Assembly: GCA_001003385.1 (NCBI GenBank)
Contig: LCPA01000002.1
Coordinates: 1 to 35,498, forward strand
DNA length: 35,498 nucleotides
Reading direction: 5' to 3'
Origin: Microgenomates group bacterium GW2011_GWF2_47_9
GTDB taxonomy: Bacteria; Patescibacteriota; Microgenomatia; UBA1400; UBA12108
Position numbers and translations under genes: made by a program. Position 1 is the stretch's first letter. Each line of letters begins with the position of its first letter. Below the pieces are notes generated by a model, which worked only from the letters and a program-made list of their open reading frames with translations, had not been told where the DNA came from and made no database searches. Of the stretch, positions 5,222 through 35,498 are shown one piece after another.

Positions 5222-5797
5222 CTATTGAAGGACTGTAGCCCCGTTCTGGTGGATGGTGAGCTCGGAGAGCAAGACTCCCTCACAGATAAGTCCGCGGCTA
5301 ACAAATTCTTTGTTTAGTTCAATTTTAAGCTTTTCTTCGAGTTCGGGGCGGGCGGTTTTGATCTCGCCGCTTGAGACGGTTGCAATAATTGAGGAAATTT
5401 TGGAGCGAGAAAAGGGACGGACGACCTTGGAGACAACGTGTTCGCCAATGTTTTCCCATAGTTCGGGGGCGTTGGCTTTGTCGAGGCGGAAGAGAATCGA
5501 GCCTTCGACTGTGATACTGACTCCGTCTCTTGTTGCGGTGTGGATAGGCTCATCACCTAGACTCTCTTTGTTTGTGAGATCAAAACCCTTGTGGAGCGAG
5601 TATTCGAGAACTTGGGCATTGAAGAGTTTGGCTACCTGCCAGAAAGGAATTTTGAGGTGAAGGCCGGGGCCATAAACCTGCTTGAGGACTCCCCTGCCCC
5701 GATCGTAGATACATGCGATATGTCCGGGGGGAACAGAGATAAAAAAACCGCCAACTACTTCATCTACCAGGAAAGACACCACAAGATTGTCGAACAT
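5222..5797 (-). CDS. SPFH/band-7 (prohibitin-like) membrane protein, 191 aa
   Basis: N-terminal hydrophobic segment, then a typical SPFH core (PPGHIACIYDRGRGVLKQVYGPGLHLKIPFWQ...TRDGVSITVEGSILFRL). The stop is 6 nt before the aclB start. Confidence 0.7.
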   Translation of the reverse strand: MFDNLVVSFLVDEVVGGFFISVPPGHIACIYDRGRGVLKQVYGPGLHLKIPFWQVAKLFNAQVLEYSLHKGFDLTNKESLGDEPIHTATRDGVSITVEGSILFRLDKANAPELWENIGEHVVSKVVRPFSRSKISSIIATVSSGEIKTARPELEEKLKIELNKEFVSRGLICEGVLLSELTIHQNGATVLQ

Positions 5798-5803
5798 GAG
5801 TGA

Positions 5804-5812
5804 ATTTTAGCA
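5804..5812 (-). promoter_or_regulatory. Extended -10 promoter TGcTAAAAT, 6 nt upstream of the SPFH ATG (candidate leaderless start)
   Basis: The minus strand reads TGCTAAAAT-tcactc-ATG (ATG at 5795-5797). There is no Shine-Dalgarno sequence. Confidence 0.55.
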
Positions 5813-5833
5813 CACCTACCAGAAAAAATATGC

Positions 5834-32560: not shown

Positions 32561-32573
32561 TCTGGGCTGAGAA

Positions 32574-32582
32574 TGGTATAAT
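32574..32582 (+). promoter_or_regulatory. Extended -10 promoter TGgTATAAT, 7 nt upstream of the ATG at 32590 (candidate leaderless start of the large + strand ORF)
   Basis: The plus strand reads TGGTATAAT-tctagct-ATG, a perfect extended -10 consensus. No Shine-Dalgarno sequence. Confidence 0.6.
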
Positions 32583-32589
32583 TCTAGCT

Positions 32590-35498
32590 ATGGGAAACAC
32601 TGAACGTCAACCTAAGCCGGGTAGTGGAGAAGTGGGGGAGAATGCAGGGGCACAGAGAACGCCTACAATTGATAAGTCGGTGGGGGGAGTAATCGATTTT
32701 TTAAGACAGATGAAACTGTTGGTTTTGATGAGGAATCAAGATCCAAATTCGGGTAATTTTGAGAAACTTCGCGAAGTTGAAGAGGGGTTACAGGATAAAG
32801 ATCCTAAAGTTCGTACGAAGTCCCAGACGTTGGCGGATCAATTAATTCAGAATTTTGATTTAGTTTCGGGAGAGGCGGGGCGAGCGAGTTTACAAAGAGT
32901 GGTTGAGACGGCGTATCCTGATGCGGGGAAGAGGCCGGGACAAGCACTTGGTTTGGCAAGCGAGATAGATAAAAAGATGGCCGTGATAACCAGAAAATTT
33001 GAACAGGGGCAAGCAGTAGAGGCGAAGGAGAGCGAGGAGATATTTGAGAGGCTTAGCAAGTTTAGAGATGAGGTTGGGTTTAGAGGGATGACGCAAGAGG
33101 GGATGCAGATTTATGAGGATACGATACTGACGGTAGTCGCGGCAAGACAAGTAGGGAAGAATGTTGAGAATCCCTTGGTTTATGAATCTCCGCTTGAAGC
33201 GAAAAAAGAATTTTTTGCGGAGGGGTCGTCTCCTCAAGCTGATGATAAGAGACTGAAAATAAGGAGGGCTAAGCCAGAGCAAAAACCACAACTAGAAGAA
33301 AAGCTGGAGAGAATGAAAAAGAACGTAAGAGAAGTGGTAATTGAGAAAAAACGGAAAATGGGGGGGCAGGAGGCAATTGGAGCGCTTGAGGACATTTCTG
33401 ACCTTAAAGCAAGACTAAGGAGCCTTGTTGGCGATCAGCATAAGGAGACGCTTGAAACTTTGCAGACACTATCGGCGGCGGAGGCACACTTTAGAAGAAT
33501 ATTAAGCGATAATATTGAGGCGAAGCTTGGGGGTGGCGCGGGAGTAGAGCAGGGATCCATATATGCCGCACTTGGGGATGTTTTACACGAGGCAAGAGGA
33601 GGAAAGTATGCGGGAGGAAAGGCAAGATATCATTTCGAGGATAAGTTTGACAAGGTAGTAGAGACGGTTGAGCGGCGAGCTAAGAGTTATGAGGCACAGA
33701 TGTCTTCTCGCTTCGGGAGAGCGGCGACACTAGGTAGCGATGAGTATAAGGGGATGTCACAAGTAGAGCGGATGATTGCAACAGCGCAGGCTCAGCAGGA
33801 AGCCGCGTTTCATGAGAAGGTGAACGATATATATCCTGTACTAAGTGAGATGGGGATTGATCCAACATTTCCGGACGGGACTTTCTTTACCAAATTACAG
33901 AAACAGACAGTTGAGGAGAGGATACAGACGATTGACGAGGTGATAAGACAAGGGAGGGAGCGAGGAGTATCTGAGTCGAAGTTGACGATGGGGGCGAAGT
34001 TTTTACACTCGATTGCACGGGCAGAAAAAGACAAAAATGGGGTAATGGTGGATTTTCTCGATGTAAAAGAAAGGTTACGAGGGTATGTAAAGAAGCACCA
34101 GTACGGGCGATATATTCGGGAGATGAAGTCTTATGTAAGTAGAGTTGGATTGCGCGAATCGTCGGCTGACTTTCAGTTTGCAATTATGTTACGCGACGCG
34201 AAAGATGTGATATCGATTTTGGAGACCGATGTGGCGGAGGAGTTTGACGCCTGGCAAGGTTCGTTGTTTATTCCTTCGTTTAAGTCGGTGGATCCGGAGA
34301 CTTTCCGCTCGATGTTTGAGAGAGTGTGGAATGCAAGTAATCTTGACCATGTGTTAAACCCGGCTTACGCAAATGCGGCCGGGATGCTTGTGGAGATGCC
34401 TGACGGGACGAAGAAAATGATGTCGACTGCGGTGTTTTACCAACTGCTTCAACGAGGAGATAACGCAACCAGATTTTTGAATGCGGCGGTTGATACGGTT
34501 GACAGTACTTCATTCCGGATTTGGATTGATTACCTTTATGGTAAGGGAGCGACGTGGGAAGGAGACTTGGCGACGGGGAGAGTGGTTGACGCAAATGGGA
34601 GAGAACTCGCAAAAATGAATAGCTTGATTAAGGTGCAGGGTTTTGATGTAAAAAGTAAAAAGCTAGACGGGGATGACCAGGATACGTTTACGCTAGGAGA
34701 GCTTTTGGAACAAGGACAATGGATGCATCGATATGCAGAGAACTTTTTTATGTATTCGGGGGAGGCGGGTAAGCATATGCGTCACTATCCGAAGGAGATG
34801 ATGGAGAACGCGAACAAGTGGGTGTTTGCGCAAGACCAGATGTTTGAAGGCTACTCAGGACACTATGGCAAGTATGCTCAGCCATTTTGGCAGATCGCAA
34901 AACTGGGGCATTTACTTCGTGAAATTAGGGGTTACAAAGACACGGGTATATTTCAGGAGGCAATGGTTTTGGAGCTAAGAGGAGCGGGGATCGAGAGCGA
35001 CCGTGCCATAGCTTTTTCGAAAATGTGGACGGACAAATTGAAACAAAAAATCACGGTAGAGGGGAAGACGTTTGATGTGGGATTGTTGTCAATTGAGGAA
35101 ATAAGGTTGATCGGAAACGAGTGGGGGGGAGCGGAAGAGGCGTGGCTACATGCGAAAGATTATTTAACGGCACACAATATGCCAGAGGGAATGATTAAGG
35201 ACCAGGCATATATAAGGAGGGTGTTGGGGAAAAAGAACCGAGGAGAGAAGATGAGTGAGGAGGAGGAAAACTGGGCGAAACAGGCGGAGGAATTTTTTGC
35301 GTTATGCAAAAGCTTGAAGTGGTCAGATGTGAAGAAAAAGGATTATGGAGGATTGTCGGAGCGAGAGCTTGCCAGCTCGATGACGGAGAGAGAGCTAGCG
35401 GTTTTTGCAAAGCGGAAGAATACAATTTTTGGCGGGGAGTGGAAGCCGCGGAATATGACTGAGTTTGTGCAAGGATTTGAGTATGCGGCGGTAATGGA
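32590..35498 (+). CDS. Large uncharacterised protein, at least 969 aa, 3' end beyond the window (absent from the supplied ORF track)
   Basis: I translated this frame codon by codon from the ATG at 32590 to 35498 and found no in-frame stop. An in-frame TGA at 32569-32571 closes the frame upstream. No + strand ORF is listed in this 2.9 kb, and the six listed minus-strand ORFs there are low-complexity shadows. The product is charged, helical-looking and lacks a TM helix, and I recognise no domain. Confidence 0.8.
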   Translation, partial: MGNTERQPKPGSGEVGENAGAQRTPTIDKSVGGVIDFLRQMKLLVLMRNQDPNSGNFEKLREVEEGLQDKDPKVRTKSQTLADQLIQNFDLVSGEAGRASLQRVVETAYPDAGKRPGQALGLASEIDKKMAVITRKFEQGQAVEAKESEEIFERLSKFRDEVGFRGMTQEGMQIYEDTILTVVAARQVGKNVENPLVYESPLEAKKEFFAEGSSPQADDKRLKIRRAKPEQKPQLEEKLERMKKNVREVVIEKKRKMGGQEAIGALEDISDLKARLRSLVGDQHKETLETLQTLSAAEAHFRRILSDNIEAKLGGGAGVEQGSIYAALGDVLHEARGGKYAGGKARYHFEDKFDKVVETVERRAKSYEAQMSSRFGRAATLGSDEYKGMSQVERMIATAQAQQEAAFHEKVNDIYPVLSEMGIDPTFPDGTFFTKLQKQTVEERIQTIDEVIRQGRERGVSESKLTMGAKFLHSIARAEKDKNGVMVDFLDVKERLRGYVKKHQYGRYIREMKSYVSRVGLRESSADFQFAIMLRDAKDVISILETDVAEEFDAWQGSLFIPSFKSVDPETFRSMFERVWNASNLDHVLNPAYANAAGMLVEMPDGTKKMMSTAVFYQLLQRGDNATRFLNAAVDTVDSTSFRIWIDYLYGKGATWEGDLATGRVVDANGRELAKMNSLIKVQGFDVKSKKLDGDDQDTFTLGELLEQGQWMHRYAENFFMYSGEAGKHMRHYPKEMMENANKWVFAQDQMFEGYSGHYGKYAQPFWQIAKLGHLLREIRGYKDTGIFQEAMVLELRGAGIESDRAIAFSKMWTDKLKQKITVEGKTFDVGLLSIEEIRLIGNEWGGAEEAWLHAKDYLTAHNMPEGMIKDQAYIRRVLGKKNRGEKMSEEEENWAKQAEEFFALCKSLKWSDVKKKDYGGLSERELASSMTERELAVFAKRKNTIFGGEWKPRNMTEFVQGFEYAAVM

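Follow-up and report, generated by a model that had tools for sequence, protein, structure and literature searches.

A 35,498-nucleotide window of the genome of Microgenomates group bacterium GW2011_GWF2_47_9 (contig LCPA01000002.1, positions 1 to 35,498) carries, directly upstream of many ATG start codons, a hexamer of the -10 promoter type, most often separated from the ATG by a spacer of exactly 6 nucleotides (nt). We consider it highly probable that these sites are sigma-70-type extended -10 promoters (tGnTAnAAT) which lack a recognisable -35 hexamer and would give leaderless mRNAs. In such a scheme the start codon would be placed so that its A is the transcription start: RNA polymerase would melt the -10 hexamer and begin transcription at the start element pyrimidine(-1)-A(+1)-T(+2), 7 bp downstream of it. 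The mRNA would then begin with AUG, or with no more than 1-3 extra bases at spacers of 8-9, and ribosomes would load directly on the 5′-terminal AUG with initiator tRNA, Shine-Dalgarno (SD) pairing not being involved. The 5′ ends and this mode of ribosome loading are what we infer from the motif and its geometry. About a third of the genes of this genome (20-50% in relatives) would use the leaderless mode, including genes just 7 nt from a co-directional neighbour, and much of the genome would consist of short leaderless transcription units. Some highly expressed genes (groES/EL, HSP20, dnaN) would retain SD-led initiation, as would genes that overlap and are translationally coupled.

The original prediction, made from the letters of the window, listed eight strong and three weak motifs of this kind, and all 11 were found at the coordinates it gives. 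On both strands of the window TANAAT-N6-ATG was matched six times, against 1.02 ± 0.99 times in 100 dinucleotide shuffles, none of which reached six, and all six matches were gene starts. With a looser hexamer (at most one mismatch to TATAAT, A2 and T6 being fixed) 7 of 30 gene starts carried the element at a spacer of exactly 6 (background 0.0029 per position, binomial P = 3e-12). Among the 861 ATGs of the window, eight were preceded by a loose hexamer at this spacer, and seven of the eight were gene starts.

The material covered, part of one genome and of its relatives, comprised the window, a further 8 kb or so from the same genome and 85 related loci amounting to about 1.2 Mb. Eighty of these are metagenome loci (1.08 Mb in total) that encode a VirB4-like protein 59-86% identical to that of the window; the other five, which share synteny with the window's left half, carry a valyl-tRNA synthetase (ValRS) about 72% identical. 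Control loci from Firmicutes, Chloroflexi, Saccharibacteria and other Candidate Phyla Radiation (CPR) members came from a DnaA search, the matches listed having at most 46% identity. In a motif-first test, for which gene calls were not needed, each -10-like hexamer was scored at spacers 0-30 for a downstream ATG that begins an open reading frame (ORF) with a minimum length of 100 codons and has a stop in frame no more than 90 nt upstream. The 80 loci gave 50, 30, 39 and 25 sites at spacers 6, 7, 8 and 9 respectively over a baseline of about 10, and the five closer relatives 28 at spacer 6 over about 1.5; the non-syntenic 43 kb of the latter gave 12 sites at spacer 6 and 4 at spacer 7. Saccharibacteria showed a smaller peak (6, 10 and 10 at spacers 6-8 against about 2.5). 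The Firmicutes control (790 kb) had no peak at spacers 6-9; its counts climbed, broadly, only past 17 nt, the pattern that leadered promoters should give.

A profile of 137 first-ATG ORF starts, taken from the window genome and the five relatives without any pre-selection for the motif, gave T-15 in 36%, G-14 in 36%, T-12 in 49%, A-11 in 65%, A-9 in 48%, A-8 in 56% and T-7 in 42% of starts, with a pyrimidine at -1 in 73%. Its consensus is tGnTAnAAT at the fixed position -15 to -7. The peak of TAnAAT at -12 to -7 implied by the original prediction was found over the window, the additional 8 kb and the 85 related loci. The dominant spacer in the window and its clade is 6. By crude gene calls, the share of genes with a leaderless-type start is 36% for the window, 52% for the closest relatives and about 20% for more distant ones, at a decoy rate of about 3%.

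Hallmarks of promoters other than the hexamer itself were also found. A TG one base upstream of the hexamer (TGn) was carried by 36% of the sites at spacers 6-9 and by 43-52% of those preceding divergent genes; for all such hexamers the figure was 5.5%. Base -1 was a pyrimidine at 81% of spacer-6 sites versus 56% of control ORF starts (P = 5e-6). Together with the A and T of the ATG, this pyrimidine forms a Y-1 R+1 Y+2 triplet centred 7 bp after the hexamer, the arrangement found optimal for start-site selection in a 49-species study (PMC12641261). No enrichment of TTGACA-like hexamers at 16-18 bp was observed upstream of the sites; extended -10 promoters can do without a -35 hexamer (PMC12641261), and its absence is usual in them. 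A scan for two-hexamer promoters found 19 sites versus 16.8 expected in positions 1-18000, not above shuffles, and 33 versus 21.2 in 17000-35498, weakly above shuffles. It recovered the promoter of rpmH and that of the large plus-strand ORF (CTAACA-16-TATAAT with TG).

Divergent genes less than 100 nt apart carried the element in 43% of cases and an SD in 4%. Only 44 bp separate the 994-aa gene from the large plus-strand ORF; this spacer holds two back-to-back extended -10 boxes, and is too small to accommodate a 5′ untranslated region (UTR) plus a promoter.

The motif and the SD sequence exclude each other. Two genes carried both where about 18 would be expected (odds ratio 0.08, P = 2.5e-7), which is the anticorrelation that had been anticipated. 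The SD-led contrast cases were likewise found as described: groES (GGAG), groEL (GGAGG at its true start, 1807), jag (GGGAGG at the 151-aa start), dnaN (GGAG) and rplY, with GAGGAGG and, 33 nt upstream of its ATG, the same TGgTATAAT promoter. HSP20 is also among the genes with SD sites, and GGAGG precedes groES in all three relatives that carry this gene. An SD-like site is present before dnaA as well, although it is weaker (GAGGGG) than the clear GGAGG type announced. The listed leaderless-type starts have no purine-rich SD, save that the VanW spacer (ggatagag) is mildly purine-rich. The proposed split into SD-led, highly expressed housekeeping genes and leaderless others turned out too neat: the two modes coexist, but rpmH and valS belong to the leaderless class, and rplY, SD-led in the window, has TGcTATAAT-N6-ATG in a relative (L174).

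The spacer peak was present only for ATG and not for GTG, TTG or CTG. In most cases the motif ATG is the first start codon after the in-frame stop, and independent gene callers agree on the starts of the VanW, cytidylyltransferase-like, YidC paralog, SPFH, VirB4, 211-aa and 994-aa genes. For the solute-binding protein of the window the start is ATG 9404 (minus strand), whose MAKFPDPTK matches the MPKFPDPTK of relatives, and not GTG 9428, the first start codon of the ORF, which was chosen by one public gene call. At a locus of the same species (L167) AAG stands in place of this ATG (around 2701-2727 in L165-L168), which explains why its gene caller picked GTG; the AAG would be either strain variation at the start codon or an assembly error.

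The element was conserved at orthologous starts. SPFH orthologues carried TGnTAnAAT in 5 of 5 cases at spacer 6 (one at 8), with the N-terminus MFDN kept while the upstream DNA diverges, and a -10 box at spacer 6-7 preceded all six cytidylyltransferase-like orthologues. TATACT was found at spacer 6-8 before the VirB4-like gene of the window and of its seven closest relatives (8/8; 81-86% protein identity), several of which have otherwise unrelated upstream sequence. For the YidC paralog the box was at spacer 6-10 in 4/6 (MFET kept), and for valS at spacer 6-9 in 4/6, three of them with TGn. About 20 of 45 rpmH orthologues, with MPKR kept, had a box at spacer 6-10, mostly with TGn; the closest relatives (L086, L089) retain spacer 6, and some orthologues have GGAG instead. 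TATACT at spacer 6 before the 211-aa gene was shared with the closest relatives (L087, L088, L089) but not with more distant ones. The orthologous DUF4012 start showed TACAAT-N6-ATG in L174 and TAAACT-N7-ATG in L171. Orthologues of the citrate-synthase-C-like gene had TATACT at spacer 6 (L173), TAAAAT at spacer 6 (L175) and TGaTAAACT at spacer 7 (L172). In relatives the VanW hexamer lies 11-14 nt from the called ATG, and a short leader is thus possible there.

Switching of the initiation mode was seen at rplY (window 13930-14640, minus strand). The gene is SD-led, 33 nt from its -10 box, in the window and in L171, and of the leaderless type in L174 (10029-10685). The sequences make this a clear case of an orthologue that would have changed mode. 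Gradual switching of leaderless genes has been described by Zheng et al. (PMC3160421).

Table 1. Proposed leaderless-type start sites of the window and SD-led contrast cases.
Gene	Coordinates	Strand	Element	Remarks
rpmH (L34)	22368..22385	-	TGgTAAAAT-N6-ATG	extended -10; ATG (22370-22368) at predicted +1
SPFH/Band-7 gene	5795..5812	-	TGcTAAAAT-N6-ATG
YidC paralog	6596..6610	-	TATAAT-N6-ATG	TAA stop (6608-6606) of upstream cytidylyltransferase-like gene inside hexamer
cytidylyltransferase-like gene	7071..7085	-	TATAAT-N6-ATG	TAA stop (7083-7081) of upstream 284-aa gene inside hexamer
valS	11218..11232	+	TAAAAT-N6-ATG	directly 3′ of VanW stop codon (11215-11217)
211-aa gene	27811..27825	-	TATACT-N6-ATG	type IV secretion system (T4SS)-like module
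VirB4-like ATPase gene	27144..27160	-	TATACT-N8-ATG	predicted leader 0-2 nt
994-aa CHAP-domain gene	32543..32560	-	TGtTAGAAT-N6-ATG	in 44-bp divergent intergenic region
large plus-strand ORF	32574..32592	+	TGgTATAAT-N7-ATG	1211 aa on longer contig; divergent partner of 994-aa gene
VanW gene	9449..9465	+	TATGAT-N8-ATG	weaker case; purine-rich spacer
DUF4012 gene	17477..17491	-	TTAAAT-N6-ATG	weak hexamer
citrate-synthase-C-like gene	3063..3080	-	TGcTATCCT-N6-ATG	candidate added to the earlier list
rplY	14632..14640	-	TGgTATAAT	leadered contrast case; promoter 33 nt from ATG, followed by SD GAGGAGG (14604-14610)
groES	2133..2136	-	GGAG	SD-led contrast case; SD 4 nt before ATG at 2128

A further candidate, the CoA-ligase-like gene (ATG 4031; TATATT at spacer 5), was rejected as a likely chance match, since its start is shared with the end of the upstream gene (ATGA) and an SD precedes the orthologues. 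At two consecutive 7-nt junctions of the minus strand (6605-6610 and 7080-7085), the upstream TAA stop forms positions 3-5 of the TATAAT of the next gene. Co-directional gaps in relatives showed no preferred size, including 7 nt with the stop codon inside the hexamer.

It was proposed originally that many genes inside apparent operons have their own promoters. This fits the data: the element, which may act there as an internal promoter, was found in 41% of co-directional gaps of 10-39 nt. Several observations weigh against leaderless promoters. The element is as frequent in these gaps as at divergent first genes, and by the logic of GeneMarkS-2 a motif before operon-internal genes points to an RNA-level site. 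Its TGn frequency in the same gaps, 26%, is above the 5.5% background but below the 43-52% of divergent genes. Hairpins resembling intrinsic terminators were not in excess over the whole window (22 versus 19.4 and 15 versus 16.2 in shuffles), and none lies between the tightly packed co-directional genes of the window; with no terminators between units, read-through polycistronic RNAs must also exist. No public RNA run contained window sequence, the only matches being foreign groEL pieces of 30-40 nt, and no metatranscriptome contig from the same site and study mapped to the window. Relatives farther removed have spacers extending to 8-10 nt, which would correspond to leaders of 1-4 nt and not strictly to none. 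Finally, the gene calls behind the frequencies are crude and ORF-based, and, a good many of the relatives being orthologous loci, the counts lack full independence and overstate the number of separate events, an objection answered in part by the non-syntenic 43-kb subset. Given the absence of any excess of terminators, internal promoters probably coexist with read-through transcripts.

TAnAAT could instead be an A/U-rich, non-SD ribosome recruitment site in mRNA, as in GeneMarkS-2 group B (Bacteroidetes), transcripts being leadered or polycistronic. In favour of this, the gaps of 10-39 nt where the element is common resemble operon-internal junctions, the units are not separated by terminators and 6-9 nt from the start is also the distance of an SD site. 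In addition, CPR ribosomes are unusual: their protein bS1 is short, and some Parcubacteria have lost the anti-SD motif (PMC9297842). Against this, the 5-9-fold enrichment of TG and the pyrimidine at -1 correspond to contacts of RNA polymerase at the DNA level and have no role in a ribosome site, and in the clade of the window the spacing is sharp at exactly 6 nt. A group B motif is expected before all genes, tightly coupled ones included; here it was depleted at overlapping or tight junctions (below 10 nt: 11% with the element, 27% with an SD), where a re-initiation signal would be most needed. Moreover, rplY uses the same motif 33 nt upstream of a start led by a real SD, that is, where a role in ribosome binding is impossible, and in the 44-bp divergent spacer the element is the sole promoter candidate. 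TGn, the pyrimidine at -1, the exclusivity of ATG and the conservation at orthologous starts together favour a promoter over a non-SD ribosome site, and we regard the latter as unlikely.

Less probable still, and in our opinion very improbable, is that the promoters are real and the start codons mis-assigned, with true starts further downstream and ordinary leaders on the mRNAs. Start calls in metagenome bins are often wrong, and one gene of the window, that of the solute-binding protein, has indeed been mis-called. However, conservation of amino acids and codons begins at the proposed ATG (MFDN of SPFH, MFET of the YidC paralog, MPKR of L34) while the DNA upstream diverges, and L34, which has 44-46 aa in all bacteria, could not start downstream. 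An ATG-specific peak at spacers 6-9 would also be unexpected from promoters lying at random distances from a downstream start. Chance or composition, by which A/T-rich intergenic DNA and upstream TAA/TAG stops would mimic -10 boxes, is effectively refuted: two hexamers (6605-6610 and 7080-7085) do contain the TAA of the upstream gene, and TAAAAT or TAGAAT at spacer 6 provides an in-frame stop slightly favoured by first-ATG-after-stop selection, but shuffles gave 1.0 match for six observed, the more A/T-rich Firmicutes loci had no peak at spacers 6-9, the other in-frame spacers (0, 3, 12 and 15) had no comparable ones, stop-free TATAAT-type hexamers were equally enriched (88-fold at spacer 8) and the elements are conserved at orthologous starts.

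A broader generalisation from leaderless promoters in this window is put forward tentatively, and we would not be surprised to see it fail. In Woesebacteria-like Microgenomates, and more weakly in other CPR (Saccharibacteria), the default unit of expression may be one gene whose transcript is a leaderless mRNA. Extended -10 promoters without a -35 would then fit into gaps down to 7 nt, sometimes sharing the bases of a stop codon, in a streamlined and UTR-free design where only a minority of genes, those for chaperones and coupled ones, would employ the SD. The trait would be shared with Actinobacteria, Deinococcus and Chloroflexi. Placement of the CPR within or near Terrabacteria has been proposed, and such a shared trait would fit it.

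The proposed mechanism is that of a known class of bacterial leaderless genes, GeneMarkS-2 group C. To this group belong 1028 of 4769 bacteria, mainly Actinobacteria and Deinococcus-Thermus, with a Pribnow box at 6-8 nt from the start (PMC6028130), a geometry which is also that of experimentally validated leaderless genes of M. tuberculosis (PMC6028130; PMC3160421). TA-like signals are widespread across bacteria according to Zheng et al. (PMC3160421). As in group C (M. tuberculosis, Streptomyces), we found a Pribnow-type TANNNT at 6-8 nt, with the SD absent at these starts and SD-led genes coexisting; similarly, 25-50% of transcription units are concerned and orthologues switch mode as relatives diverge. 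Unlike the phyla of the group C papers (PMC6028130, PMC3160421), the lineage here belongs to Microgenomates/CPR. Whereas high-GC phyla have a degenerate TAnnnT, the full TAtAAT is present here, frequently with TGn. Starts are almost only ATG, in contrast to mycobacteria and Deinococcus, which also use GTG. Very short co-directional gaps, too, often contain the element, at times in overlap with the preceding stop codon, unlike in group C Actinobacteria. The present case differs, then, in the lineage, the full TAtAAT with TGn, the near-exclusive ATG and the very tight packing; as far as mechanism is concerned, novelty is limited to the lineage and the packing.

Deinococcus deserti offers a close parallel, 60% of its mRNAs being leaderless by differential RNA sequencing (PMC4007540). 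As proposed here, a large share of its mRNAs starts at or a few nt from AUG/GUG, and its -10 element is TAnnnT (PMC4007540). Its transcription starts were mapped experimentally and used for re-annotation of start codons (PMC4007540), whereas ours are read from sequence only. The sites also resemble extended -10 sigma-70 promoters in general (PMC12641261), with TG one base upstream, no need for a -35 and a pyrimidine-purine-pyrimidine start centred 7 bp after the hexamer. They differ from other promoters of this type in that the start codon itself, by its A and T, would supply R+1 and Y+2. Archaeal leaderless genes (GeneMarkS-2 group D) are likewise leaderless, with the SD reserved for operon-distal genes, but they rely on a TATA box as promoter, situated about 26 nt upstream, instead of a -10 box at 6-8 nt. 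Group B motifs are, like ours, A/T-rich, close upstream of SD-less starts and present in co-directional arrays; they lie in the mRNA 5′ leader and cannot be promoters (PMC6028130), whereas the motif described here has TGn, the pyrimidine at -1 and specificity for ATG. Within the limited collection of literature on CPR, Patescibacteria, Saccharibacteria and Microgenomates that we searched, no paper linking them to leaderless initiation was found. The nearest published link to initiation in CPR is the report on the anti-SD motif and bS1 cited above (PMC9297842).

With a mechanism that is itself well known, the finding extends existing knowledge and overturns nothing. Several consequences would nonetheless follow. 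Gene callers tuned to the SD will misplace starts in CPR bins, as exemplified in the window by the solute-binding protein, and operon predictions based on spacing would overestimate co-transcription in these genomes. TGnTAtAAT-N6-ATG could serve as a compact promoter-plus-start design for expression tools in the few genetically tractable CPR bacteria. A deep-branching lineage with ultra-small genomes would join the leaderless-rich bacteria, which bears on whether leaderless initiation is ancestral and on how genome streamlining removes untranslated regions.

The gene content of the 35.5-kb window includes groEL/ES, an ATP-citrate-lyase-like cluster, valS, rplY and the rpmH-rnpA-yidD-yidC-jag / dnaA-dnaN region. 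There is also a T4SS-like module, to which a VirB4-like ATPase, a PrgI-like gene and a CHAP-domain protein belong. Contigs from groundwater metagenomes of the Rifle aquifer (PRJNA268031) encode proteins identical to those of the window. The nearest named homologues come from metagenome-assembled genomes assigned to 'Microgenomates' and 'Candidatus Woesebacteria', the best named match being 64% identical for DnaA and 72% for ValRS. GC skew is strongly positive (+0.13 to +0.35) over nearly all of 2001-34000 regardless of gene strand, and does not change sign at the divergent rpmH/dnaA region near 22.4 kb. In other Microgenomates a strand asymmetry of the whole chromosome has been published and read as largely unidirectional replication (PMC7143001).

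The ATP-citrate-lyase-like cluster (2244-5215, minus strand) adjoins groES/EL and consists of three genes with citrate-binding/ATP-grasp, CoA-ligase and citrate-synthase-C domains, an enzyme set not expected in a CPR genome of reduced metabolism. Cluster and synteny are kept in those of the five relatives with a ValRS about 72% identical (L171-L175) whose contigs extend that far.

At dnaA, four close relatives (L086, L088, L089 and L092) differ from the window, which has the SD-like GAGGGG: their ATG is preceded by GTGGATAAT(A). In this upstream element TGTGGATAA, which resembles a DnaA box, overlaps GATAAT, a -10-like hexamer at spacer 6-7. The overlap suggests autoregulation at a leaderless-type dnaA promoter in these relatives.

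Adjoining dnaN, the T4SS-like module (25221-32545, minus strand) comprises genes for the VirB4-like ATPase, the 211-aa protein, the PrgI-like protein, a Big_5 protein and the 994-aa CHAP protein. Among the 80 VirB4-like loci (L085-L164), rpmH is carried by 45, dnaA by 53, dnaN by 59, the 211-aa gene by 71 and the PrgI-like gene by 65. TATACT is the hexamer variant common to genes of this module, often as cTGgTATACT, and stands before VirB4, before the 211-aa gene and before the PrgI orthologues in close relatives (L085-L091). GTATAC being palindromic, a site for a module-specific regulator that would overlap the -10 box at T4SS genes is possible.

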